From Deltaproteobacteria bacterium ADurb.Bin151 (GTDB lineage Bacteria; Desulfobacterota; Syntrophia; Syntrophales; Smithellaceae), in assembly GCA_002070455.1 (NCBI GenBank), contig MWDG01000001.1:240-64239 (forward strand): a DNA stretch of 64,000 bases. Reading direction: 5' to 3'. Below, one piece after another: positions 21,897 through 36,350 of the stretch; position 1 is the first letter of the stretch; every line of letters begins with the position of its first letter. The translations under genes were made by a program, and so were the position numbers. The notes below the pieces were generated by a model. It saw only the letters and a list, made by a program, of their open reading frames with translations. It ran no database searches and was not told the origin of the DNA.

Positions 21897-24416
21897 ATGA
21901 AAATAAAATCAAAACCAAGTGAACCCAGAACGCCGGATCAGCCTGAAAAATCTGGGAAATTAGCAGAAACAATACAAGCAAACAAACAATGGTTCCATGC
22001 TATTGCCCAGCAATCTTCGGATATTATTCTTGTGGTGAATCGGGAAGCAGTGGTGCTGTATGAAAACGATGCTGTGGAAAGAATCCTGGGATTTAAGCCT
22101 GAAGAAAGAATTGGCGAAAAAGTATTTGATCATGCGCACCCTGATGACGTGGGTTTTTTAAGTGACGCATTCAATTTATTATTTGCAGATGAAAATGCTC
22201 CGGTTCAGCAACGTGAAGTGCGTGTGCAGGACATTGAAGGGAATTGGCATATTTTTGAAGCAGGTGCAAGCCATCTGAAGCAGAAAGGCATTGTTGAAGC
22301 AGTCGTAGTTAATCTCCGCGATATTACCGATCGCAAGCGTGTGGAAGAAGCCCTGCAGGAAAGTGAAGCACGCCTCCATGAAAGAGAGGAGCGTTACCGG
22401 AACATTCTCGATAACATGGAGGAGGTGTATTACGAGATAGATCTGAAAGGAAGAATGACGTTTTTCAATAGCACGGCAGTGAGGAAACTCGGATACAGCA
22501 GGAATGAAATGATAGGCATGAATTTTCGCCAATATGTGGAAAAGGAGAGTCATCAAAAGGTGTTCGATGCGTTCCACAAGGTTTTCCTTACAGGGGAGCC
22601 TGTTCAGGGAGTTGATTGGGAGATCATCAGCAAAACAGGCGTGAGAATGCCCGTTGAAAGTTCCATATCTTTGATGCGGGGACTTCAGGGTGACCCTGTT
22701 GGGTTCAGGGGTATTATCCGCGATGTTACCGAGCGTAAACGTGCAGAGGAGAAATTGCATCGCGAAGAACAGAGATTTCGGGCTCTAGCTGACCAATCTG
22801 CGGACATCATTGTCATCGTAAATCGAAAAGGGATTATTATCTACGAAAACAACGCGATTGAAAAAGTTTTAGGATACAAACCTGAAGAAAGAATCGGTGG
22901 CGGCTTATTTGATCTTGTTCACCCGGACGACTTAAAATATTTAACTGAAATAGCTATTAAAATTGCCAAAGATATCAACGCCCCTCATCTGCGGTCTGAG
23001 ATGCGTATTCGTCACAGGGATGGAGACTGGCGCATATTCGAGGTTACGGGAAGCAGCTTGATCAATCGGGGGAAAATTGAATCAGGAATTGTTAACCTCC
23101 GGGACATTACCGAGCGCAAGCTTGCGGAAAAAGCGCTCCGGGACAGTGAAGCACGTTACCGCGAAAGAGAGGAGCGTTACCGGAATATCCTCGATAACAT
23201 GGAGGAAGCCTATTATGAGGTGGATCTGAAGGGGAACCTCACATTTTTCAATGCTGCAGCCGTGATGAATCTCGGTTATGCGGATAATTTCATGATGGGT
23301 CTGAATTTCCGGGAGTATGTGGATGACGAGAATGCGAACAAGGTGTTCGAGGCCTACCATAAGGTTTTCCTTACGGGGGAGCCTATCAAGGGAATCGATT
23401 GGGAGTTGATTACTAAAGAAAGCGGGAAAATACCCGTTGAGAGTTCCATCTCTCTGATAAGGGATGTTCAGGCCAAGCCTGTTGGGTTCAGAGGGATTAT
23501 CCGTGATATCACCGAGCGCAAACGGGCTGAAGAGGCACTGCGGGAAAGCGAGGCGAAGTTCCGAAACCTTACCGAAACCGCCCAGGATGCGATTGTAACG
23601 ACCAATATGAAGGGAATGATTACTTACGCCAACCCGGCGGCAAAAGCACTTGCCAGCGGCAAGGCGGTTGTCGGAATGGTTTTGAAAGATTTCCTGCCCC
23701 CGGATTCAGTTGAACATCATTATGATCAAATTTTTGACTTACTCAGCAGAGGCTTTTCAGAGACCCTGTCTTACGAGTCGAAAATCATGAGATCGCCGGG
23801 TGATGATCCGCTTTACTTCGATGTAAAATCCTCCACACTATGGAATCGAGGTGAACCTTCGGGAATCCTTCTTGTTGCTAGGGACGCAACCGAGCGCAAG
23901 CGGACAGAGGAGGAGATCCGCCTGATGGCCATTATTGATCCCATGACGGGATTGCTCAACAGAAGAGGTTTTATCTCCCTCGCCGAGCAGCAAATGAAAG
24001 CAGCTGTCCGGTCCTGTAAAAAAATGCTTCTTTTTTTCATCGATCTTGACGGCCTGAAGTTTATCAACGATACCTGGGGGCATGAAGAGGGTGACCGCGC
24101 ACTGAGAAGAACATCCGCGATCCTGAAAAATACATTCAGGGAATCCGATATTGTTGCCCGCCTCGGGGGAGATGAATTTGCCACGCTCGTTTACGACAGT
24201 CCTGAACTGCCCGAAGTTATTATGAAACGTTTGCAATGCAGGACTGATGAGGAATGCGCCGCTTCTGATCTTCCTTATATCATTTCCATGAGTATCGGCA
24301 TCGCAGATTACGATCCTTCGGTGCCCTGTTCAATCCATGAATTGATGTACGAGGCTGACCAATTGATGTATAATCAAAAGAAAAGCAAAAAACAGGCGGG
24401 GAAATATCCTGTTTGA
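21897..24416 (+). CDS. Multi-PAS/PAC diguanylate cyclase (GGDEF)
   Basis: 839 aa. Five PAS-like blocks separated by D(I/V/A)T(D/E)RK boundaries. C-terminal GGDEF domain (DPMTGLLNRRGF, RLGGDEFATL). No EAL domain. Confidence 0.9.
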   Translation: MKIKSKPSEPRTPDQPEKSGKLAETIQANKQWFHAIAQQSSDIILVVNREAVVLYENDAVERILGFKPEERIGEKVFDHAHPDDVGFLSDAFNLLFADENAPVQQREVRVQDIEGNWHIFEAGASHLKQKGIVEAVVVNLRDITDRKRVEEALQESEARLHEREERYRNILDNMEEVYYEIDLKGRMTFFNSTAVRKLGYSRNEMIGMNFRQYVEKESHQKVFDAFHKVFLTGEPVQGVDWEIISKTGVRMPVESSISLMRGLQGDPVGFRGIIRDVTERKRAEEKLHREEQRFRALADQSADIIVIVNRKGIIIYENNAIEKVLGYKPEERIGGGLFDLVHPDDLKYLTEIAIKIAKDINAPHLRSEMRIRHRDGDWRIFEVTGSSLINRGKIESGIVNLRDITERKLAEKALRDSEARYREREERYRNILDNMEEAYYEVDLKGNLTFFNAAAVMNLGYADNFMMGLNFREYVDDENANKVFEAYHKVFLTGEPIKGIDWELITKESGKIPVESSISLIRDVQAKPVGFRGIIRDITERKRAEEALRESEAKFRNLTETAQDAIVTTNMKGMITYANPAAKALASGKAVVGMVLKDFLPPDSVEHHYDQIFDLLSRGFSETLSYESKIMRSPGDDPLYFDVKSSTLWNRGEPSGILLVARDATERKRTEEEIRLMAIIDPMTGLLNRRGFISLAEQQMKAAVRSCKKMLLFFIDLDGLKFINDTWGHEEGDRALRRTSAILKNTFRESDIVARLGGDEFATLVYDSPELPEVIMKRLQCRTDEECAASDLPYIISMSIGIADYDPSVPCSIHELMYEADQLMYNQKKSKKQAGKYPV
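21987..23552 (+). repeat. Intragenic tandem duplication of a two-PAS module (2 x 783 bp: 21987-22769 and 22770-23552)
   Basis: Example: 22380-22450 gaaagagaggagcgttaccggaacattctcgataacatggagga... versus 23163-23233 gaaagagaggagcgttaccggaatatcctcgataacatggagga.... Protein blocks EERYRNILDNMEE(V/A)YYE(I/V)DLKG and VGFRGIIRD(V/I)TERKRAEE recur 261 aa apart. Confidence 0.8.
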
Positions 24417-25153: not shown

Positions 25154-26992
25154 ATGGCAAGTTTATGGATTGATGAGAGGGATATAAAATTCCAGCTGAA
25201 TGAGGTTTTCAATATCGGGGAAACCATTCTGGGCAAAGGCCGCTATGCCGATCACGATGTGGATATGTGCAACATGGTGCTCGATCAGGCGCAGAAATTT
25301 GCCGAGGTTGAGATAGCTCCCACTTATCCGGATGAGGTTCATCGTAAACCGGTTGAAGCTGTATTCAAGGATGGAAAGGTTTATGCACCGGAATCCTACC
25401 ACCGCCTCTGGAAACTGTATTGCGAAGGCGGCTGGATGACCACAGCCGATTCACCTGAAGTTGGCGGCCAGTCCTTTCCGTTCATTATTGGGGCTGCTGT
25501 TGCCAACATGTTTCTGGCTACCAATCAGGCGTTTCTCATGTATGCCGGTTTGAGCCATGGCGCGGCACGGTTGATGGAAGATCACTTCAAAAACCCCCTG
25601 CGTGACATTATCATCGAAAAGATGTTCTCCGGCCAGTGGGCTGGCACAATGTGCCTGACCGAACCGGGTGCGGGGTCTGACCTGGGCATCCTGAAAACTA
25701 CAGCTAAAAGGAATGGAGACGGTACTTATTCCATCGTTGGCACCAAGTGTTTCATTTCTGCCGGAGATCATGACCTGACAGAGAATATTATTCATCCGGT
25801 GCTGGCCCGCATCGAAGGTGACCCGGCCGGCACGAAGGGAATTTCCATCTTTATGGTTCCCAAGATCCGTTTCAATGAAAAGGGCGAACTGGGAGAACCC
25901 AACGATGTGCAATGCGGCAACATCGAAAGCAAAATGGGTATCCACGGCAACGCCACCTGTACTCTGAACTTCGGCACCGACGGAAAATGCATCGGTTATC
26001 TCATGGGTGAAGAGTGCGATGGTATGAAGATCATGTTCCAGATGATGAACGAAGAACGACAGGGCGTGGGAATGATGGGTGTGTCCCTGGCCATGTCGGC
26101 TTACCTGCATGCGCTCGACTACGCCAAGCAGCGCATCCAGGGCTCGAACATCATTGCCGTGGCATTGAAAGATCCGAATGCAAAGGCAGTGCCGATTATT
26201 CAGCATCCGGATGTGCGCCGCATGCTCTTAAAGCAGAAGAGCATTACCGAAGGTATGCGCGCTCTGGCTTTCCTGTGCTACTATGCGATGGACCAGGAAT
26301 TTAACGCCGGTCTTGAGAACAACGAACAGCAGAAAGAATACTGGCATGGCATGATTGAAATGCTCACCCCGATGGTCAAGTCCTACTGCACGGAGAGAGG
26401 CATGGAAGTATGTGGCGATGCCGTTCAGACTTACGGTGGTTACGGCTATTGCCGTGAATACCCGGTCGAGCAGATGATGCGTGACCAGAAGATCAACCTG
26501 ATTTACGAAGGCACCAATGGTATCCAGGCGATGGACCTGCTGGGCCGCAAGCTTGGTATGAAGAAAGGCCTGTATTTCATGAATCTGCTGGGTCTGACCC
26601 AGGCGGCCATTGCCGAAGCGAAAAACAACGAGGGCCTGAAGGCGGAAGCGGAAATCGTCGAAGGCGCCCTCAATGCCTGTGCGGCAACCGCAATGGATTT
26701 TGCAAAGATGATGAAAACCACGCCTTTCGTTCCTCTGATTGGCGCCTGTGACTACCTCAATTGCTTATCCGACGCTCTCGTCGGCTGGCTGCATGTCTGG
26801 ATGGCCAATGTTGCGACCAAAGGTCTTGCCAATGCCACAAACGATAAGGACAAGGCTTTCTACAGCGGCAAGATCCAGGGTGCAAAATTCTTTATCAACC
26901 GCATCACCGGTCTCGTACCGGCCAAACTGGACAATTTAAAGAAGGATGAGCAGAGCGCTATGAACATTAGCGAAGAAGCTTTTGCCGTCTAG
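25154..26992 (+). CDS. Long-type acyl-CoA dehydrogenase with a C-terminal extension domain
   Basis: 612 aa. AAGGAGG upstream. CLTEPGAGSDLG and QTYGGYGYCREYPVEQMMRDQKINLIYEGTNGIQ ACAD motifs, plus about 150 extra C-terminal residues. Confidence 0.85.
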   Translation: MASLWIDERDIKFQLNEVFNIGETILGKGRYADHDVDMCNMVLDQAQKFAEVEIAPTYPDEVHRKPVEAVFKDGKVYAPESYHRLWKLYCEGGWMTTADSPEVGGQSFPFIIGAAVANMFLATNQAFLMYAGLSHGAARLMEDHFKNPLRDIIIEKMFSGQWAGTMCLTEPGAGSDLGILKTTAKRNGDGTYSIVGTKCFISAGDHDLTENIIHPVLARIEGDPAGTKGISIFMVPKIRFNEKGELGEPNDVQCGNIESKMGIHGNATCTLNFGTDGKCIGYLMGEECDGMKIMFQMMNEERQGVGMMGVSLAMSAYLHALDYAKQRIQGSNIIAVALKDPNAKAVPIIQHPDVRRMLLKQKSITEGMRALAFLCYYAMDQEFNAGLENNEQQKEYWHGMIEMLTPMVKSYCTERGMEVCGDAVQTYGGYGYCREYPVEQMMRDQKINLIYEGTNGIQAMDLLGRKLGMKKGLYFMNLLGLTQAAIAEAKNNEGLKAEAEIVEGALNACAATAMDFAKMMKTTPFVPLIGACDYLNCLSDALVGWLHVWMANVATKGLANATNDKDKAFYSGKIQGAKFFINRITGLVPAKLDNLKKDEQSAMNISEEAFAV

Positions 26993-27011: not shown

Positions 27012-27049
27012 ATAAAAAAGGGGGAACCTTCAGGTTCCTCCTTTTTTTA
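27012..27049 (+). terminator. Rho-independent terminator after the acyl-CoA dehydrogenase gene
   Basis: aaaaaagggggaacc-ttca-ggttcctcctttttttat: GC-rich stem, 4-nt loop, T7 run. Confidence 0.8.
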
Positions 27050-27130: not shown

Positions 27131-27682
27131 TTATGTCTTCTCAAAATGGTGATAGTCTTTAGGCTGTTCAAAGTTTCCTCCCCAGTGCCATCCCCGCTGG
27201 AGAAATTCACGAACAACGGGATGATCTGCGGTGAACGTGCCGCGGTTTGCCGGACGATAAACGGCTCCGGCGGGTGCGATCAGTCCGGTGGGATAAATCA
27301 CGGGATTCTGTAAGGGATTGATGTCCACGGCGCGCCCGAAAGAATGGAGAGACAGTTTGTTGGTGTCAGCGATGACACGGAAGTTGAATGCGGAAGAATT
27401 ATTGTCCGCCATGGAATCACCGTCTTCCCAGCGGTAAGAAACAATGGGGATCACTTTGCCAACTGGAAATTTCAGTCTGTCGATTAGTTCAAATATTTCG
27501 TAGATGTCGTCTTCAAGCCTTGCATCAACAAGGATCTGCCCCTGATGACGCAGGCCGTCAAAAGAATAGTAATACACGTCAATCATGGACAGAGAGTCTA
27601 TGATTTCAAGAGGTGCCGTGGAACCTTCAATGGCTGCAGCAAAACTCATAGCGCTGTCGATAATGATATCATCATCCGGCAT
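27131..27682 (-). CDS. Peptidase M15 (LAS-type, VanX / L-Ala-D-Glu peptidase-like) protein without a signal peptide
   Basis: 183 aa. SLHSFGRAVDINP (H-x-x-G-x-A-x-D) and WHWGGNFEQPKDYHHFE motifs. The N-terminus [10 protein letters not shown] is not a leader. Its start codon overlaps the upstream stop by 1 nt (TAATG). Confidence 0.7.
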   Translation of the reverse strand: MPDDDIIIDSAMSFAAAIEGSTAPLEIIDSLSMIDVYYYSFDGLRHQGQILVDARLEDDIYEIFELIDRLKFPVGKVIPIVSYRWEDGDSMADNNSSAFNFRVIADTNKLSLHSFGRAVDINPLQNPVIYPTGLIAPAGAVYRPANRGTFTADHPVVREFLQRGWHWGGNFEQPKDYHHFEKT

Positions 27683-30093
27683 TATGTAAACTCCTTGAGT
27701 ATTATCCCGAGCATTTCCTCGTTGAGCGAGACTTCGTTATAGATTGCGCTCAGAGTGCTGCAGGAAAGATGTTCAAAATCCGACAGCCGCGGTGTGATCA
27801 CAACACCGGCCATGTCAATGGCGCCCGGGGAAATAAATATATTCTTTTTGCCCTTGGCAAAGTAAGCGTCGGGACGATGCTTCCGGCGCAGGAAAATGGT
27901 CAGTCGCCAGGTCTTTCCGGCGTAAGAACAAATGACATTCACCGGTGGTTCATCCCTTTTTGCCAGGATTTTCCGCGCAGCTTTTACGAAACGGTTGAAT
28001 TGCTTCATCAAAGCGGCCGCATTGCCGGATTCCATAACAATGACAGCACGATCAAATTGTTTTCCTGCTGTGATTTGAACGGAAGAGGCGGCCTTGGTCA
28101 GGGGGAGTTTGTTGAATCGGGCCAGAAACGGCAGGACGTTGGATGGAATCATCTGGAAATGAGCGTGATCGGGCGCGGAAGCTCCGCAAAACGGACCGTT
28201 GTAGAAAACGATATAATCCGGCCCAACATCGGCGGAAAGCTTCAGGAGCCGATCCAGAGATGAGACAATGTTCTGTGGCCGGTGCCGGAGGGTGACAATC
28301 GTAAAGTGCCGGTTAAAGATCGGGGCTGGATTACACAGGATAAGAAAATCATCCCTGTATAATATGGCTTGTTGGGCGTCAGGCAGGTTTTTCCGGCATA
28401 GAAAACAGGGGCGTTTTTTTATGGACTCCCTGTCCACCGCAGCGCCGCCGCTTACCGCACGTGCGGGATTGTATTGCAGCGTGATGGTATATCTGCCGCA
28501 TGAGAGCTGTCTGGTCTTTATGTTTTTCAGGTCCCGGCAGGCAGCCGCAAACTCGGGCCATGTTTCTTTCTGGCGATGATCAAGATCCCGGCAGAGAGCA
28601 GGTAGCGAGATGTTTCCCGATCCCGTGAAACTGGCAGAAACGGGATTCAGCTGAATGGACCGGGACGCCGTCTGAATTGGCCGGCCTTCGTTGATCAGCT
28701 GGCGGGCGCGCAGTTCCATCGTTCGTAGCCTGTCTTTGTAATAGTCATTTTGGTTTTGCCGTTCGACGGAAAGACCTGCGTCGGTATTATCTGCCCACCG
28801 ACGGCACAGATAGAGGCTTTCGTAAATTCTGCCGACTTTGAACTCCCGTGTTATCTGCAGGGCCACCGCGTAATCCTCCCCATAACTCACATTGGGGAAG
28901 CCGAACCGGCGCAGGACATTTGTATTAAAAGCCCTCGGTGCGCCCATTCCGTTGATCCGAAGCAGATTGTTATGGCCGTTTTGGGAGGTCCATTCCCGGT
29001 GATCAATGAGCCCGGGCGGAATCTCTCTCTGCCGTTGGTCTACCAGAGTATAGGAGCCGACGGCCATTGCGTATTTTCCCCTGCGCAGAGTATTGATCAT
29101 GGTTTGCAGAGATTTTGGTGAACTGTAAACGTCGTCGGAATCCAGTTGAACCGTGTACCGTCCGCAGTGGGGTGAATAAATCGCTTCATTCCAGCAACCG
29201 CCAATGCCCAGGTCGCGTCGTTTGGGTACCAGATGCCGCAGGTTGGGATGTTTTGCCGAAAATTTTTTTATAATTATTGCTGTCTTGTCCGTCGAATGGT
29301 TGTCAACGACAATGACATTAAAAGGGAAATTCGTTTTCTGACAGAGGGCACTTTGAAGCGCATCGGCAATCGTTTTTTCGCGGTTGAGCACCGGAATGAC
29401 AATGCTGGCTTCCCATGGAAAGTCCGCCGATTCCTGAGTCGCTTTTTTTGTTCGTGCCGGTAAATACGCGCCGATACGTTTCAAATGCTGCGTCGCAATT
29501 TTTTCAAACTTTTTCTGGCGGGCAAAATTTTCTTTTGCGACATAGTGAAAATGTGTTTCTGACTTTCCATTTTTTTTCTTCTGCTGTTTTTTGATGGACG
29601 CTGTATAAAGGAATTCCGGCAGATGGAGAATGACCGAGTCAAGAGAAATTTTGAGTCGCAAATCATAAAGAGCGGTGTCCGGATCGGATCCGGGCGCACC
29701 GTATTTTTTCATGGCGGCTTGAATTGCATTGGAGGAAAGAATGAAAAAATGACCAAAGTTGAAATCATCGCGGATCGATCCCGGTTGGCAGTCGTTAAGC
29801 GGATGGGCAGCGCGGCCATTGGCAGTGGTTGTAAGAAAGTCCGGGTAAACGATCCCTGCTCCGGTCTCCCGGGCAACGGTAAAGAGTCTTTGCAGGGAGT
29901 GCTCCGGGCATAGCACGTCCACACCGGAATCAACGGCCAGCAGATAACCAGAAGAAAGTTTACGGAAGAATGAAGATGGCTGTCGTGTTTCTTTGATGAT
30001 GGATGATTCAGACGGCCAGCGCTCCGCGGCCTGTTTTTCATCCGAGGCGCAAAAGAGAAAAAATCGCCCTGATTGATAAATCGAAGGTTTCAT
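27682..30093 (-). CDS. Three-domain fusion: degenerate GT-A-like N-domain, glycosyltransferase family 2 domain, and a DUF4922/GalT-type HIT (HxHxQ) nucleotidyl-transferase/phosphorylase-like C-domain
   Basis: 803 aa. GT2: [23 protein letters not shown]...[12 protein letters not shown]...QLDSDDVY. C-terminal: [15 protein letters not shown]...[11 protein letters not shown]...[15 protein letters not shown]-terminal ~190 aa contain YDLRLKIS but no clear DxD. Confidence 0.7.
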
Positions 30094-30116: not shown

Positions 30117-30650
30117 TTAAAAATCAGCCATCATCATATTGAAAGCATTTTCCGTCGTGTCCTGGGCCAGTTTGGAAAGAGCCTGTTTTCTGGCAGGTAG
30201 GGGGTTGGTATCGTCAATCAGTCTGTAATCCACGGTACCGACGATATTTCGCGAAGACCAGATGGTTTTCCCTGTGTCTTTTTCACGGAAACTGGCTTCG
30301 AGGATAACAGTCATCCTCTCTTCGGCCGCCAGCAGGTTGTCCCGGTAGGAGAGTGTGCTTGTGCTGATATTAAGAATGTTGCCGCTGATCACCGCGTCCG
30401 CCTGTTCGATGTCCGAAACGGTTTGAAAGCGGTTGCTCTGGATAACCTGGTCAATAAATGCGGAGCGCATGTAATTTTCCACTTCGGCCAGGGCTGTTCT
30501 GTTGCCGAAAGGTGCCACATAGACATTTTGTATACGGCTGTCGATGTGTTCGCCCTGAGGGGCGAATGTATACCCACAGCCGAAAATGACCAACACGATC
30601 AGAAGGGTCAACCCTGATTTTATCGCTGACAAGAAGTTTTGTTTTTTCAT
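30117..30650 (-). CDS. lptE: LPS-assembly lipoprotein LptE-like
   Basis: 177 aa. Lipobox VIFGCGY. Sits immediately downstream of leuS, the conserved proteobacterial leuS-lptE synteny. Confidence 0.65.
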
Positions 30651-30663
30651 GGATGGTTCCTGC

Positions 30664-33246
30664 TTACGGTTTTATTACAATATTCACCAGTTTTTTGGGG
30701 ACGTATATCACTTTTACAATCGTTGCGTCTTTGAGCATCGCCACAATTTTTTCATCAGCCTGCGCATCAGCCTTTATTTTTTCGCCATCTTCATCAACCG
30801 GGACAGTCATCCGGCTGCGCAGCTTGCCGTTGATTTGAATCACGATGGTCATTTCTTCTTCACTGGCGATCGCTGGATCAAAGTCGGGCCAGGGCATTTC
30901 GGCTACAGATATTTGATTCCCCATTATTTGCCAGAGTTCTTCCGTGATATGCGGAACGATCGGCGCCAAAAGCAGGACAGCCGATTCCAGCGCTTCACGG
31001 ATGACCGCCAGCGCATTCCGGTCGTTTTTTGCCGGTCGTTCGACAGCGTAGAGTGTATTGACCAGTTCCATCACAGCGCTGATTGCGGTGTTGAAATGGA
31101 AGCGGTCTTCAATGTCCATGGTGACCTTGCGGATGGTCTGGTGCGTTTTTCGTCGCAAGGCCTTGAGATCTCCTTGGGCCGACAAGGCTTCTTTTGGGGG
31201 TGCTGAAACCGTTTTGATATCTTCCAGATAATCGTCAATGATTCTCCACAGACGCGAAAGAAAGCGGAAAGATCCATCCACGCCCTGCGAGCTCCATTCC
31301 AGGTCCTTTTCCGGAGGCGAGGCAAATAGACAGAAAATCCTTGCTGTGTCGGCGCCGTAACGCTGAATAAGATCATCCGGGTCAATTACATTTTTGAGTG
31401 ATTTGGACATCTTTTCCGTTTTGCCGATGATGACATCCTTTCTGCAGATGTGGCACTTGCCATCGGTGGCCTGTTCGGGGAAAAGATAGCCGTGTTCCGG
31501 GCATTTCATGGTTTCTTTGCAGACCATGCCCTGTGTCAGAAGGTTGGTAAAGGGTTCGTCTACACCGATAACGCCGAAGTCGCGCAATACTTTGGTGTAA
31601 AACCGCGAGTAAAGCAGATGCAGAATCGCGTGTTCGATGCCGCCAATGTACTGATCAACCGGCATCCAGTAATCGAGGGTTCTGCGGTCCAGACCCGGCT
31701 TTTCGTCATAATCAGGACAGCAGTAGCGATCGAAATACCAGGACGACTCCACAAACGTGTCCATGGTGTCGGTTTCTCTGGAAGCTTTCCCTCCGCAACT
31801 GGGGCAGACCGTATTGACAAATTCGGGAAGCGCAGCCAGGGGAGAACCGCCCTCCGGACTGAAGACGACATTTTCGGGTAGGACAACCGGAAGATCTTCC
31901 TCTTTTACAGGAACGATCCCGCATTTGTCGCAGTTGATCATGGGAATGGGGGCTCCCCAATAGCGCTGACGTGAAATGCCCCAGTCGCGGAGACGATACT
32001 GGATGGTTCGGCGGCCTTTTCCCTGGGATTCCAGGAAATCAGCGATAGCCTCCAGAACCTTCGTGTTTTCCATGCCGTCAAATTGACCGGAATTGACCAG
32101 AATTCCTTCATCCACGTATGCTTCGGTCATAGTTGCCGGATCCAGTGTCCTGTCTTTTGGGGAAATGACAACTATCAGCGGAAGGTTAAATTTTTTGGCA
32201 AATTCGAAGTCCCGTTGATCGTGCGTGGGAACGGCCATCACGCAGCCTGTTCCATAATCGGCCAGAACAAAATTGGCAGCGTAAATCGGCATTTCCCGTC
32301 CGGTGAGCGGATTTTTGCAATAGGAATCCAGAAACAGACCTTCCTTTTCATAATACTCGGAGGTCCGCATGAGCTTGTCCTGTTTTTTGACCTTTTCAAC
32401 AAATGACCGGACATTGCTTTCGCAGGGTTTCCCTTTGGCCAGCTCCATGACCAGTGGGTGTTCGGCGGCGATCAGCATAAACGTCGCGCCGAAAAGGGTG
32501 TCCTGTCGGGTCGTGAAGACTTTAATTGCTCCTTTACCGTTGGCCATGGGAAAATCTACTTCACAGCCGTAGCTTTTGCCGATCCAGTTTTTCTGCATCG
32601 TCATGACGCGTTCCGGCCAGCCGGGCAGTTTGTCACAGTATTCAAGCAGTTCATTGATATAGGCGGTGATCTTAAAAAACCACTGATCGAGGACTTTTTC
32701 TGTCACTTCCGTGCCGCAGCGCCAGCAAAGGCCGCCTTCGACCTGTTCGTTTGCCAGAACCGTATCGCATTTGGTGCAGAAATTGACGCTGGAGCGTTTT
32801 TTATAGGCCAGGCCTTTTTCGTACATCCAGATAAAAAAGAGCTGCTCCCATCGGTAGTATTTGGGGTCGCATGTGGCGATTTCCCTGTCCCAGTCGTAGC
32901 TGAAGCCCATGCGCTTGAGCTGTTTACGCATGTGACTGATGTTTTCATAGGTCCACTTTGCCGGATGGATTTTATGCTCGATGGCGGCATTTTCCGCCGG
33001 CATACCGAAGGAATCCCAGCCCATGGGATGCAGGACATTGAATCCCCGCATGCGCTTGTAGCGGGCGACCACATCGCCGATGGTGTAATTACGGACATGA
33101 CCGATATGAATTTTGCCGGAAGGATAGGGAAACATTTCCAGCAGATAGTATTTTTTCTTATGAGGATCTTTGGTGACTTTAAAGGATTTATCCTGCTCCC
33201 ACTTCTTTTGCCATTTTTCTTCGATGGCAATCGGTTCGTACTTCAT
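30664..33246 (-). CDS. leuS: Leucine--tRNA ligase
   Basis: [16 protein letters not shown] start at 33246. [12 protein letters not shown] (HIGH) and KMSKS motifs. The track start 33294 adds 16 non-conserved residues. Confidence 0.95.
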
Positions 33247-33354
33247 AAATATGGTATGCTCCCCAATGGTAATAATCGGCAATTTGTCTAACATATCGGC
33301 CTGGTGCTTGCAATGCCTTTGTTCAGGCTAATGTGCGGGCCTTATCATTGCCCA

Positions 33355-33388
33355 ATAAAAAAGCCGGGGGTAGGCTCCCGGCTTTTAC
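33355..33388 (-). terminator. Rho-independent terminator downstream of the TetR gene
   Basis: Stem agccggg (33362-33368) / cccggct (33377-33383). On the - strand it is followed by TTTTTT (complement of aaaaaa 33356-33361). Confidence 0.7.
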
Positions 33389-33409: not shown

Positions 33410-34036
33410 TCAGGCCAATACCGATTTTAAAATCTGTTTTTCAAGAAGATCGATCAGTTTTTCTTTGGAATATTTTTTCATATTCCAGCGACGCAGGGCG
33501 CGCAGGGATAACTGGTAAATAATCATGTTGGCTGTAAATGATGCGTCCTCAAAATGAAACACTTTTCTTGCTTTTCCCTTTTTAAGGATTTCTTCCAGGT
33601 AGGAGACCACCTTGCTTTCCCTGGCCAGAATAATTTTAAGCAGACGTTTTGAAAGGGCTTTTGATTCCCGGTATAAAAGAAGGATTTCATCGGCGTAGTC
33701 ATAACTGTAATAAATGAATTCATGAATCAGCGTCTTGAGCTGTTCGAGGGGATCGTCCACCGTCATCAATCCTTCCTGTTCGAAGAGCTCTTCCTCCCGT
33801 TTGTGGATCATTTCAAAAACAAGGAAAAGAATATCCTCCTTGCTTTTAATGAAGTAGTACAAATTCCGGATATCAATGCCTGTCGCTCTGGAAATTTCCC
33901 GCATGGATGTCTGAACATACCCTTTTTTCATGAAAAGTTTTGTGGCTTTTTTAATGATCTGCATTTGTCTTTTCTGAAACAGAACGTTGGTTTTTCGTGG
34001 CTTGGATTTAGGTTCAGACAATGTTTTTTTTCTCAT
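33410..34036 (-). CDS. TetR/AcrR-family transcriptional regulator
   Basis: 208 aa. N-terminal HTH IIKKATKLFMKKGYVQTSMREISRATGIDIRNLYYFIKSKEDIL. Confidence 0.85.
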   Translation of the reverse strand: MRKKTLSEPKSKPRKTNVLFQKRQMQIIKKATKLFMKKGYVQTSMREISRATGIDIRNLYYFIKSKEDILFLVFEMIHKREEELFEQEGLMTVDDPLEQLKTLIHEFIYYSYDYADEILLLYRESKALSKRLLKIILARESKVVSYLEEILKKGKARKVFHFEDASFTANMIIYQLSLRALRRWNMKKYSKEKLIDLLEKQILKSVLA

Positions 34037-34149
34037 GGATTTTTTACAACCCTTTCAGAAATCGCTGTACATTTTTATAACAAAAATACCCCATCTGTCA
34101 ATATAAATTGAAAAAATCGCTTGACAAAATTATCAGGGCAAAATAATTC

Positions 34150-34171
34150 ATACAACGAATGATAGTTGTAT
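34150..34171. promoter_or_regulatory. Candidate TetR operator: inverted repeat atacaac-N8-gttgtat in the tetR / hbd divergent region
   Basis: Direct reading. The 7-bp arms lie just downstream of a TTGACA (34121-34126). No experimental or comparative support. Confidence 0.3.
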
Positions 34172-34243
34172 TTTATCATCTTGGAAAAAGGGTTGTTTTT
34201 CATAACTTTTTCAACAAAAATCCATGAAAGCGAGGATCAAAAG

Positions 34244-35113
34244 ATGAAGATTGAAGACGTGAAGAATGTGTGTGTTGTTGGTGCCGGTAACATGGGACAT
34301 CAGATTGCGCTGCAGTGCGCACTTTCCGGCTTTAAAACCGTCAGTACGGATGTCATTCCGGCCGTTTTGGAAAAAGCGGAGAAATTTGTAGATACCTATC
34401 TGGCAGGCCGCGTACAGAAAGGGAAAATGACAGAAGATACGGCAAAGGCGGCCCGTGCAAGAATCTCCTTTACCGGGGATTTGAAGGAAGCCGCGAAAGA
34501 CGCTGACGTTGTAATCGAAGCCGTTTTGGAAAGAATCGATCTGAAAAGGAAAGTATTTGCCGAGCTGGACAAATATGCGCCGCCTGACGCCATTCTGGCT
34601 AGCAACAGCTCTTTCATTGTGAGCTCCAGAATTGCCGATGCCACAAAAAGGCCCTCCCAGGTATGCAATCTCCACTTCTTCAACCCTGCCCTGGTGATGA
34701 AACTGGTGGAAGTGGTCCAGGGGCCCCATGTTTCGGATGAAACGGCCAAGTGCATGATGGATTTCTGCCTCAAGATCGATAAAGTCCCCATCCATATCAG
34801 GAAGGAGGTCGATGGATTCGTTTTAAACCGGATTTTCAGTGTGATTCACAAAGAGGCACTCTGGATGCTGGAAATGGGCGTGGCTTCTTTTGAAGATATC
34901 GACAAGGCATGCGTCTATGGCGCCGGTCATCCGATGGGGCCTTTCCGTTTGCTGGACCTGACCGGTATTGATCTGGCCTATGATATCGGCATGAGCCACT
35001 TTTACGAAACCGGCAACCCCGCCGATCTGCCATCTCCCAGTATTGTGAAACGTTACACAGAAGGCAAATACGGTCAGAAAACGGGTGAAGGCTGGTACAG
35101 CTACAAGAAATAA
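34244..35113 (+). CDS. 3-hydroxyacyl-CoA (3-hydroxybutyryl-CoA) dehydrogenase
   Basis: MKIEDVKNVCVVGAGNMGHQIA start at 34244. Also NSSFIVSS and HFFNPA motifs. Confidence 0.85.
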   Translation: MKIEDVKNVCVVGAGNMGHQIALQCALSGFKTVSTDVIPAVLEKAEKFVDTYLAGRVQKGKMTEDTAKAARARISFTGDLKEAAKDADVVIEAVLERIDLKRKVFAELDKYAPPDAILASNSSFIVSSRIADATKRPSQVCNLHFFNPALVMKLVEVVQGPHVSDETAKCMMDFCLKIDKVPIHIRKEVDGFVLNRIFSVIHKEALWMLEMGVASFEDIDKACVYGAGHPMGPFRLLDLTGIDLAYDIGMSHFYETGNPADLPSPSIVKRYTEGKYGQKTGEGWYSYKK

Positions 35114-35141
35114 ATAACAAAAATATCATGGGGGAGGAATT

Positions 35142-36350
35142 ATGAACAGGGAAGTTGTATTTGCAGGCGGAATCAGAACCGCCTTTGGCACGCTGGGGAG
35201 AACGCTGCGGAACATGATGGGCGAAGAACTGGCCGGACTTGCCATGAAGGGTCTTTTGGAAAAGACGAAGGTTCTGGAAAAAGGAGGCGTGGTGGATTCG
35301 GTTTTTATGGGATCGGCCATTGGCGGCAACACGGCAATCAACCCGGCACGCTGGGCAGTTCTGGCCTCGGGGCTTCCGGATACTACGTCGGCTTCTTATA
35401 TTGAAATGCAATGCGGTTCAGCAATTGACTCCATCAATCATGCTGCGTGGAAAATTCTGGCAGGTCAGGCCGATATTATGATTGCAGGCGGGTTTGAATC
35501 CTACAGCCAGGCTCCGTGCCGGTTTCCGATGACCACGGAACCTTTCCGCATGATTCCTCCGATGCCGATTGCCTATTCACTTGCTCCTTCGAGGGACGCT
35601 GCTACGATGAACATGGGCTTTACGGCAGAAAAGCTCCAGCAGATGTATAATATTTCCCGGGAGGCGCAGGATGAATTTTCTTATCGGAGTCAGCAGCGTG
35701 CTAAAAATGCGATCGAATCCGGTTTCTGCGCCGAGGACATTCTGCCGATCATGGTGCCTCAGGGCAAGAAACCCGCGATCGAGTTCAAAGTGGATGAATT
35801 TCCCCGCCCTGAAACCACGATGGAAGGTCTTGCCAAACTTCCGCCGGCTTTCGTCAAAGACGGAACGGTTACAGCCGGCAATTCTTCCGGCCGCAATGAC
35901 GGTGCTGCTTTCGTTTTGATGATGACCAGAGAAAAAGCCGAACAGTTGGGGTTGGCGCCCTGGGCCAAATGGCTGGCCGGCGGTGACTGCGGTGTTGATC
36001 CAAAAATCATGGGGATTGCTCCGGCGTATTCCGTGCCTCTCGCGCTCAAAAAAGCCGGCTTAAAATTGAGTCAGATGGATGTGATGGAATGCAATGAGGC
36101 GTTTGCTGTCCAGAACCTGGCTGTGGCCGCCGAACTGGAAAAACAGACGGGAGAGAAAGTGGATTGGGAAAAGTGGAACCCGAACGGCGGCGCAATATCT
36201 TTCGGTCATCCAAACGGCGCTTCCGGTGCCCGTATCGGTATCTTCACCATGCGTGAGCTGATGAAAAAAGGTAGCAGGTACGGATGCTTCAGTTCCTGTT
36301 GCGGAGGAGGCTTGGGCGTAGCCACGGTTATAGAGAACCTGCAGGTTTGA
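35142..36350 (+). CDS. Acetyl-CoA C-acyltransferase (thiolase)
   Basis: 402 aa. QCGSAIDSIN (active Cys), NPNGGAISFGHPNGASGAR and CCGGGLGVATVIE thiolase signatures. Confidence 0.9.
   Translation: MNREVVFAGGIRTAFGTLGRTLRNMMGEELAGLAMKGLLEKTKVLEKGGVVDSVFMGSAIGGNTAINPARWAVLASGLPDTTSASYIEMQCGSAIDSINHAAWKILAGQADIMIAGGFESYSQAPCRFPMTTEPFRMIPPMPIAYSLAPSRDAATMNMGFTAEKLQQMYNISREAQDEFSYRSQQRAKNAIESGFCAEDILPIMVPQGKKPAIEFKVDEFPRPETTMEGLAKLPPAFVKDGTVTAGNSSGRNDGAAFVLMMTREKAEQLGLAPWAKWLAGGDCGVDPKIMGIAPAYSVPLALKKAGLKLSQMDVMECNEAFAVQNLAVAAELEKQTGEKVDWEKWNPNGGAISFGHPNGASGARIGIFTMRELMKKGSRYGCFSSCCGGGLGVATVIENLQV

Follow-up and report, generated by a model that had tools for sequence, protein, structure and literature searches.

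A glycosyltransferase-HIT fusion encoded beside leuS and lptE in Smithellaceae, and its probable role in peptidoglycan-fragment salvage

We analyzed a 64,000-nucleotide stretch of contig MWDG01000001.1 (the window) from Deltaproteobacteria bacterium ADurb.Bin151, a member of the Smithellaceae, and focus here on a gene for an 803-amino-acid (aa) protein of three domains and on the gene neighborhoods of its relatives. In the window, this gene is the third of a four-gene co-directional unit on the minus strand. The unit opens with leuS (30664..33294 in the list of open reading frames [ORFs]), encoding an 876-aa leucyl-tRNA synthetase, followed after 13 nucleotides (nt) by lptE (30117..30650), encoding a 177-aa lipoprotein (Pfam LptE, 4.3e-11) with the lipobox ...IFGCGY. 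After a further 23 nt comes the 803-aa ORF (27682..30093), whose stop codon overlaps the start codon of the last gene (27131..27682) in the sequence ...ACA TAATG CCG..., with an AGGAG 8 nt upstream; this last gene encodes a 183-aa, signal-less metallopeptidase of the LAS/M15 type. An original prediction made from the letters of the window had reported both gaps and the overlap, and the ORF coordinates bear this out. What it described is real and goes well beyond chance; its anatomy of the locus was right, and its functional guess, a general role in envelope-precursor recycling, lay in the right direction. Our analysis shows the 803-aa protein to be a three-lobe cytoplasmic enzyme that probably takes part in the salvage of peptidoglycan fragments.

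Three lobes in an 803-residue soluble protein

Two of the three domains are recognized directly by Pfam. Residues 230-364 match Glycos_transf_2 (PF00535; 1.2e-20, 74.5 bits against a cutoff of 23.3) and residues 506-649 match DUF4922 (3e-55, 186.6 bits against 23.6), with a match to Ap4A_phos_N in residues 581-668 (2.7e-5, 24.2 bits against 23.1). The central glycosyltransferase family 2 (GT2) core had been predicted from motifs, all of which are present. None of the NCBIfam equivalog cutoffs was reached by the protein, and we set aside the label "WfgD glucosyltransferase" attached to an identical database protein, since no equivalog score backs it. An AlphaFold2 (AF2) model with a mean predicted local distance difference test (pLDDT) score of 69.6 was confident over residues 1-170 (about 75-90 in the N-terminal lobe) and 485-803 (85-95), moderate over 229-338 and poor over 339-483. 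Searched against the PDB with Foldseek, the model matched two tandem GT-A proteins, the Escherichia coli chondroitin polymerase K4CP and human LH3, over 446-495 aligned columns that span both lobes. For conservation, we used 27 relatives with 34-58% identity to the 803-aa protein. Pfam, AF2, Foldseek and conservation together delimit a GT-A-like N-terminal lobe (aa 1-178; 29560..30093), a GT2 catalytic lobe (aa 229-470; 28684..29409) and a HIT lobe (aa 485-803; 27685..28641) made up of DUF4922 and a GDPGP1_C-like half, all encoded on the minus strand.

The GT2 lobe has the GT-A fold, with Foldseek matches (E values from 1e-10 to 1e-5) that include K4CP, TarS and SpsA. Its best solved relative by sequence is the A2 lobe of K4CP (3e-14), in an alignment that takes in the preceding interdomain linker, and the two have the motif QLDSDD in common. 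Other motifs of the lobe are VVDNHSTD, D318-S-D320 (29134-29142, which translates to DSD) and Y-G-E406-D407-Y. Among the relatives, D269, D318, D320, D321, E406 and D407 are invariant. Profile, fold and residues identify the lobe as an intact GT2 glycosyltransferase of the inverting kind.

The C-terminal lobe had been described as an HxHxQ HIT domain of the DUF4922 type, and every line of evidence agrees with that description. It contains a C563-x-x-C566 knuckle and the motif H643-A-H645-F-Q647 (28153-28167, which translates to HAHFQ); C563, C566, H596, H604, H643 and H645 are invariant in the relatives, and Q647 is kept in at least 90% of them. Foldseek aligned this part of the model with the yeast Ap4A phosphorylase Apa2 (4i5t) at a TMt of 0.61 over 333 columns, which identifies a two-half HIT fold, and a profile of the domain also matched Apa2 (E = 8.7e-4), with the family motif DHLHFQ aligned on the catalytic DHKHLQ. 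A related locus bears the precomputed Pfam label GDPGP1_C, and DUF4922 is also the domain found in GDPGP1, a GDP-D-glucose phosphorylase orthologous to plant VTC2 (PMC7041677). Judged by the same three measures as the GT2 lobe, the HIT lobe is an intact nucleotidyl-phosphorylase of the GalT branch, of the GDPGP1/VTC2/Apa2 type.

The N-terminal lobe had been called a GT-A remnant without a DxD. The second half of that claim holds: there is no family-wide DxD, and the position aligned with it reads D55-S-G, which is not conserved. A GT-A origin is plausible but less firm, given the Foldseek matches to K4CP and LH3 and an hhalign comparison of the N-lobe with the GT2 lobe that was in register with the DxD and ED motifs but not significant (E = 0.15). 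This register is suggestive, and we did not take it as proof of an internal duplication in which the N-lobe would be a copy of the GT2 lobe. The lobe nevertheless has conserved motifs of its own, namely Y83/D85, G105-S-x-R108-D-D-F111-x-F-G114 and Y143-x-L-R-L, in which R108, F111, G114 and Y143 are invariant among the relatives and Y83, D85 and G105 nearly so. It is thus plausibly a degenerate GT-A-like domain that is still functionally constrained, and it probably binds sugar or acceptor. As the N-lobe lacks a conserved DxD, the protein would have a single active glycosyltransferase (GT) lobe and does not qualify as a bifunctional polymerase of the K4CP type. Hydropathy analysis found no hydrophobic or transmembrane segment in the 803-aa protein, which is therefore soluble and cytoplasmic, as had been predicted.

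The neighboring 183-aa protein matches Peptidase_M15_4 over residues 106-182 (2.9e-18, 66.6 bits against a cutoff of 25), in agreement with the family and motifs given in the original prediction. It has the motifs S-L-H113-S-F-G-R-A-V-D120 and D176-Y-H-H179-F-E, and H113, D120, D176, H178 and H179 are invariant among its homologues, so that the zinc ligands are in place. We take its D-x-x-H arrangement to be a trait of the M15C L-Ala-D-Glu peptidases. No signal peptide was found, as had been predicted: the maximum Kyte-Doolittle value over 19 residues was at most 1.58 in 42 homologues, against a median of 2.09 for LptE and 2.4 for permeases of the major facilitator superfamily (MFS) as controls. 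A profile of the protein gave one weak match in the PDB, to Ply500, an L-Ala-D-Glu peptidase of a Listeria phage (E = 0.14), with both LAS motifs aligned, and a single-sequence search of the PDB gave no match. AF2 modeled the catalytic half poorly (pLDDT 66.6), and a Foldseek search of the PDB yielded nothing below E = 1, with VanY at E = 2.6. In the source databases, homologues are named CwlK (several, in JGI) or "cytosolic protein". The N-terminal approximately 100 residues (window 27134-27440) are also highly conserved (for example D9, S10, F14, E19-G20, D42, H46 and G48-Q49), and this region matched no Pfam family and no solved structure.

Gene neighborhoods inside and outside Smithellaceae

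The 803-aa protein has more than 8,000 database relatives, and a search of 50%-identity cluster representatives returned 854 below E = 1e-30. We retrieved 80 genome loci for comparison (numbered L below), drawn from Smithellaceae, other Syntrophales, Syntrophorhabdaceae, Prevotella/Segatella, Paludibacteraceae, other Bacteroidota, Acidobacteriota and Ignavibacteriota; counts of neighbors cover the loci with enough flanking sequence. The fusion of GT and HIT domains, which the original prediction had described, is real in the window but optional in the family. Among 45 Smithellaceae loci, the two are fused in 31 and encoded by separate adjacent genes in 10. In other lineages (29 loci), they are split in 18, part of a four-domain fusion with SpoIID in eight, and on truncated contigs in three. 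Since split and fused forms occur in one family, the GT-HIT fusion is common without being obligatory. Three-domain fusions of about 800 aa are also found in Segatella cerevisiae and Mangrovibacterium, and four-domain proteins span 1,000-1,300 aa: seven of the eight representatives longer than 900 aa are fusions of the N-lobe, GT2, DUF4922 and SpoIID, and in the Prevotella-type loci (n = 8) proteins of 1,204-1,255 aa with these four domains are followed by an MFS permease gene.

Outside Smithellaceae, a SpoIID homologue, separate or fused, accompanies the enzyme in 18 of 24 loci and an MFS permease in 11 of 24. SpoIID was the commonest family in a Pfam census of 130 neighboring proteins, followed (lineage-specific thioredoxin genes aside) by MFS, BadF/BadG kinase, AmiA-like and GNAT families. 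The census revealed no conserved export, polymerase, acceptor-producing or lipid-carrier genes. The SpoIID proteins match SpoIID/LytB above cutoff, and the best match of the MFS permease is the AmpG family, at 184 bits. This pair of partners recurs across Bacteroidota, Acidobacteriota, Ignavibacteriota and other Desulfobacterota, joined in some lineages by MurQ, AmgK, MurU, an AmiA-like amidase or a NagK-like kinase. Of these additional families, the kinase is closest to AmgK, the BadF protein is closest to NagK, and the nucleotidyltransferase has MurU among its top matches; AmgK/MurU lie near the enzyme in only one of 18 loci outside Smithellaceae. The original prediction missed SpoIID and AmpG as conserved partners because both lie outside the window.

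The SpoIID homologues retain the motifs SVISSEM, CADDHCQRY and GHGVGLCQ. Hydropathy analysis detected no N-terminal hydrophobic segment in them, and the fused copies form the C terminus of a cytoplasmic protein. Since the motifs are kept and a hydrophobic segment is lacking, these homologues are cytoplasmic and probably catalytically competent, a placement that is unusual for the SpoIID family.

Gene order in individual lineages adds detail to this pattern. A Segatella-type locus runs GT-HIT, SpoIID, AmpG-like MFS. In a Bacteroidales locus (L083:1-13476), the module lies within a SusC/SusD pair, together with a bona fide MurQ (two genes away, equivalog cutoff passed) and a BadF-type kinase; in this locus, GT, HIT and SpoIID are separated by inserted genes, which encode a 477-aa outer-membrane-like protein and a secreted protein with a transglutaminase core. 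Some Bacteroidota and Ignavibacteriota loci have a gene for a 173-aa GNAT acetyltransferase between GT and HIT (L067:3295-3813, L068:9275-9793 and L078:9332-9850), with a NagK-like BadF/BadG kinase gene directly upstream. One Bacteroidales lineage has three-gene units of DUF4922, SpoIID and AmpG-like MFS (L084:10001-13744, L085:8001-11758, L086:8001-11720 and L087:8001-11713), with no GT2 homologue within 8-10 kb. Genes of about 160 aa upstream of these units were considered as free-standing N-lobes and rejected, as they encode hydrophobic membrane proteins without similarity; the amidohydrolase that adjoins them is HutI. The GT-less units make HIT, SpoIID and permease the tightest core of the module.

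The neighborhood in Smithellaceae is of a different kind. The M15 gene lies 3' of the enzyme gene in 38/38 loci, including those in which the identity of the GT-HIT protein falls to 52%, and leuS lies 5' in 33/33 (73-95% identity by tblastn). Outside the family, neither gene accompanies the enzyme (M15 0/24 loci, leuS 0/22), so that the M15 coupling and the slot after leuS and lptE, which the original prediction had stressed, are peculiarities of one family; these do not define the system, and the enzyme has no specific tie to leuS-lptE. Co-conservation of the enzyme with M15 beyond this genome is complete within Smithellaceae and absent elsewhere. The TAATG overlap is narrower still, confined to the window's own clade, with gaps of about 20-160 nt in other Smithellaceae. 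An lptE gene also lies about 5 kb upstream of GT-HIT, on the opposite strand, in Segatella/Prevotella (L081:2292-2822; cluster c23 in L042-L049 and L063), in a block with SecG, a sigma-54 activator, PdxA and RlmN; this is a second, independent case of lptE near the module and may be coincidence.

Where more of the Smithellaceae locus is available, its order is SpoIID, AmpG-like MFS, MurU-like, AmgK-like, leuS, lptE, GT-HIT, M15. AmgK is present in 18 and MurU in 15 of the 25 loci with 7.5 kb of upstream sequence, and an AmiA-like gene (a homologue of MurNAc-L-Ala amidase, where MurNAc is N-acetylmuramic acid) lies near the enzyme in 18/38 loci, often on the other strand. These gene orders suggest that the salvage module is dispersed around the leuS-lptE operon in this family. 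In the window's clade, the distal half of the order is retained and the upstream half is replaced by a TetR gene and others. As other Smithellaceae carry MurU and AmgK in this same upstream flank, the region upstream of leuS has been rearranged in the window's clade.

The flanks of the four-gene unit in the window (25154-26992 and 33410-36350) hold beta-oxidation genes for a 612-aa acyl-CoA dehydrogenase, the TetR regulator, a 3-hydroxyacyl-CoA dehydrogenase and a thiolase. Two hairpins found by consensus scan likely mark the ends of the unit. A terminator-like hairpin followed by a T-run, 3' of the M15 gene (27023..27038, minus strand), would be its 3' end, facing the convergent acyl-CoA dehydrogenase gene. 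Between leuS and the TetR gene, a perfect 12-bp palindromic GC-rich hairpin (33359..33386), bordered on either side by A and T runs, would be the 5' boundary of the unit, and it resembles a bidirectional terminator. Further away, on the plus strand (21897-24416), lies a gene for an 839-aa PAS-repeat/GGDEF-type protein with two long, nearly identical internal repeats (e.g. ...EERYRNILDNMEE[VA]YYE[IV]DLKG...), which suggests that a PAS module was recently duplicated within it.

A candidate route for peptidoglycan-fragment salvage

The domain identities, the conserved catalytic residues, the cytoplasmic location and the pattern of fusion and synteny are directly supported by these data. Because the family is fused to or syntenic with SpoIID/LytB, AmpG-type permeases, MurQ, AmgK/MurU and AmiA-like amidases, we consider it likely that the enzyme processes imported disaccharide fragments of N-acetylglucosamine (GlcNAc) and MurNAc or its 1,6-anhydro form, GlcNAc-(anh)MurNAc. 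The same evidence speaks for the general guess of envelope-precursor recycling made in the original prediction. Its core partners, as judged from family matches, would be a cytoplasmic homologue of the SpoIID/LytB-type lytic transglycosylases and an AmpG-family permease, and the module is probably an undescribed branch or variant of peptidoglycan recycling. A GT and a phosphorylase of nucleoside diphosphate (NDP) sugars share the same NDP/NDP-sugar pair, so that nucleotide cycling is the most economical rationale for fusing them. Taken as a whole, a three-lobe cytoplasmic enzyme of a peptidoglycan-fragment salvage module that cycles its nucleotide is our favored reading, and we judge the chances that it is right in full to be evenly balanced.

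The chemistry that would realize this cycle is more tentative, and we doubt rather than expect it in its particulars; the substrates, the catalytic direction and the nucleotide used are those that we infer. The AmpG-family permease would import GlcNAc-(anhydro)MurNAc. The GT2 lobe would then run in reverse on the beta-1,4 N-acetylhexosamine (HexNAc) glycoside (GlcNAc-(anh)MurNAc + NDP -> NDP-GlcNAc + (anh)MurNAc), and the HIT lobe would phosphorolyze the product (NDP-HexNAc + Pi -> HexNAc-1-P + NDP). The net outcome would be an ATP-free phosphorolysis in which the nucleotide is recycled. The 1,6-anhydro end may be a task for the SpoIID homologue, and in Smithellaceae the M15 protein, if it is of the M15C type suggested by its D-x-x-H as in L-Ala-D-Glu peptidases, would together with the AmiA-like protein trim the stem peptides of imported muropeptides in the cytoplasm. 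If nucleotide cycling does occur, it would represent a new phosphorylase design and an energy saving relevant to energy-starved syntrophs.

Several points weigh against this reading. To transfer the sugar of a beta-1,4 HexNAc glycoside back onto a nucleotide is thermodynamically unfavorable, we know of no GT2 enzyme that acts in reverse in this way, and the characterized DUF4922 enzymes use GDP-hexoses. The GT-less units described above mean that the GT is not an obligatory neighbor and that the HIT substrate need not come from the GT lobe. Queries with SpoIID, AmpG-like, AmgK-like, MurU-like, AmiA-like and BadF-like proteins gave no tblastn match in the 64-kb window, so that the partners are unseen in this genome. 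The AF2 models are poor for two regions, the latter half of the GT2 lobe and the catalytic half of the M15 protein. The family is large and catalogued but uncharacterized, with biochemistry recorded for no member, and a literature search found no function assigned to the GT2-DUF4922 family. Finally, the correspondence with two gtf genes of Tannerella forsythia (Tanf_08350/08355) that we propose below is drawn from gene order and annotation only.

The part of the favored reading most open to an alternative is the place of the M15 protein. It could work apart from the fusion, for instance as a housekeeping dipeptidase of the cytoplasm that acts on D-Ala-D-Ala or L-Ala-D-Glu, with adjacency and stop-start overlap reflecting synteny inertia at the level of the family. 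Its absence near the enzyme in all 24 loci outside Smithellaceae and the restriction of the overlap to the window's clade, with longer gaps in other Smithellaceae, are what this would produce. We nonetheless find it somewhat unlikely, given an adjacency that persists in every Smithellaceae locus down to 52% GT-HIT identity, an AmiA-like homologue near the enzyme in 18 of the 38 loci, and a substrate class, stem peptides with D-amino acids, that suits muropeptide salvage.

A second alternative keeps the salvage context and turns the chemistry around. In a Leloir-like biosynthetic direction, AmgK would make MurNAc- or GlcNAc-alpha-1-phosphate, a GalT-like HIT lobe would exchange UMP to give UDP-MurNAc or UDP-GlcNAc without UTP, and the GT2 lobe would transfer the sugar to a cytoplasmic acceptor, for instance to rebuild a disaccharide or to modify a precursor. 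HxHxQ is also the GalT motif, the CxxC knuckle is similar to the zinc site of GalT, the Smithellaceae supercluster includes AmgK and MurU, and forward transfer is the normal direction for GT2 enzymes. Yet MurU already serves exactly this step, profile and fold favor the phosphorylases Apa2 and GDPGP1 over GalT, AmgK/MurU accompany the enzyme in a single one of the 18 loci outside Smithellaceae, and the neighborhoods offer no conserved acceptor-producing or lipid-carrier genes. On balance we hold this direction to be unlikely.

Rather less probable again is a module centered on HIT and SpoIID, in which SpoIID would reopen anhMurNAc as a reversed or phosphate/NDP-accepting lytic transglycosylase, HIT would yield MurNAc-1-P or recycle the nucleotide, and GT2 would be an accessory that removes GlcNAc, all independently of AnmK. 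DUF4922-SpoIID-MFS units without a nearby GT, four-domain proteins that join SpoIID to HIT, and intact catalytic motifs in cytoplasmic SpoIID proteins all fit such a core, as does the use of GlcNAc-anhMurNAc by T. forsythia via AmpG without AnmK (PMC7670621). The idea is, however, wholly inferential, and its stereochemistry is awkward in that a beta-anhydro bond must give the alpha-1-phosphate needed by the HIT and MurU enzymes. In addition, neither reverse action nor the use of phosphate is known for any lytic transglycosylase.

Equally improbable, in our estimation, is a version that combines all three activities into the nucleotide-cycling, ATP-independent dismantling of AmpG-imported GlcNAc-1,6-anhydroMurNAc. 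In that route, the reverse GT2 would release GlcNAc in the form of NDP-GlcNAc, opening of the anhydro ring would fall to the SpoIID homologue, and the HexNAc-1-phosphates made by HIT from the NDP-sugars would feed MurU and GlmU. If true, it would add a new branch to peptidoglycan recycling and account for the growth of T. forsythia and other bacteria without AnmK on anhydromuropeptides; it would also be the first glycoside "phosphorylase" with a physiological role to combine a Leloir glycosyltransferase with a HIT enzyme.

Least probable by far is a glycosyltransferase for envelope polysaccharide or linked to lipopolysaccharide (LPS), a K4CP-like two-GT-A synthase recruited to leuS-lptE to make or modify a glycan of the outer membrane, with HIT policing the NDP-sugar pool: the best solved-structure match is indeed K4CP, interdomain linker included, the enzyme gene is directly 3' of lptE (with LptE about 5 kb away in Segatella/Prevotella loci) and the Tannerella operon was formerly called glycosylation-related, but the N-lobe lacks a conserved DxD and leaves a single active GT, there are neither transmembrane segments nor conserved export, polymerase or lipid-carrier genes, and the conserved partners are peptidoglycan-specific. 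An LPS-linked function read from lptE adjacency was likewise rejected as the principal explanation, because that adjacency is confined to Smithellaceae (0/22 elsewhere).

Comparison with known systems

Peptidoglycan recycling is well mapped in only a few proteobacteria and in Bacillus. Members of the family described here number in the thousands and come from Bacteroidota (among them Prevotella of gut and rumen), Acidobacteriota, Ignavibacteriota and syntrophic Desulfobacterota, where they are encoded beside a muropeptide permease. With the canonical AmpG-NagZ-AmpD-AnmK and AmgK-MurU routes, the related neighborhoods share an AmpG-type permease and AmgK-like, MurU-like and MurQ proteins. They differ in placing GT2, HIT and a cytoplasmic SpoIID beside AmpG, and in that the families recorded in the 130-protein census of neighbors did not include NagZ, AmpD, AnmK, LdcA or Mpl; NagZ, AmpD and AnmK are likewise not found in the window. 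To our knowledge, GT2, HIT and cytoplasmic SpoIID proteins have no role in known recycling pathways.

The individual proteins also have characterized counterparts. The HIT lobe resembles GDPGP1/VTC2 and Apa2 in its DUF4922 match, in the HxHxQ that falls on the Apa2 catalytic motif and in its two-half fold; it differs in belonging to a family fused or adjacent to GT2 and SpoIID, in a peptidoglycan context. Tandem GT-A lobes and a helical linker are shared with K4CP (and with LH3 and its accessory GT-A lobe), and the A2 lobe of K4CP is the best PDB sequence match, whereas the window protein has an N-lobe without a conserved DxD, an extra HIT lobe and no capsule genes nearby. The M15 protein aligns with the M15C peptidases Ply500 and CwlK at the SxHxxGxAVD and KDYxHFE motifs and shares the Pfam M15_4 match. 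In contrast to them, it is cytoplasmic, without a signal peptide or cell-wall-binding domain, and has a conserved 100-aa N-terminal region, and its similarity to a solved structure is weak (E = 0.14).

The closest parallel in gene order comes from the oral pathogen T. forsythia, in which Tanf_08345-08385 form one transcript of a xanthan-lyase-like gene, gtf, gtf, lytB, ampG, ybbC (namZ1), murT, murK and murQ (PMC5388701). Its AmpG imports GlcNAc-MurNAc and GlcNAc-anhMurNAc, and the organism lives on GlcNAc-anhMurNAc although no AnmK is predicted (PMC7670621). The function of the two gtf genes has been stated to be unknown (bioRxiv 10.1101/2021.12.02.470905), and our literature searches on the T. 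forsythia locus tags and on GppX returned nothing beyond "unknown function". When a DUF4922 protein from Paludibacteraceae served as the query of a homology search, none of the best 120 matches bore a Tannerella label. The window's clade differs from this operon in having GT and HIT fused, no SpoIID or AmpG nearby, and M15 and leuS-lptE added. In Ignavibacteriota and Bacteroidota loci (L068, L076, L078 and L081), however, the order [N+GT2][DUF4922][SpoIID][AmpG-like MFS] equals the gtf-gtf-lytB-ampG order of T. forsythia, and in L083 the module has MurQ and a BadF-type kinase beside it. By analogy, the two gtf genes would correspond to the family described here, and the domain dissection and fusion pattern make two gaps in the T. 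forsythia pathway testable: the roles of gtf and lytB, and the use of GlcNAc-anhMurNAc without AnmK.

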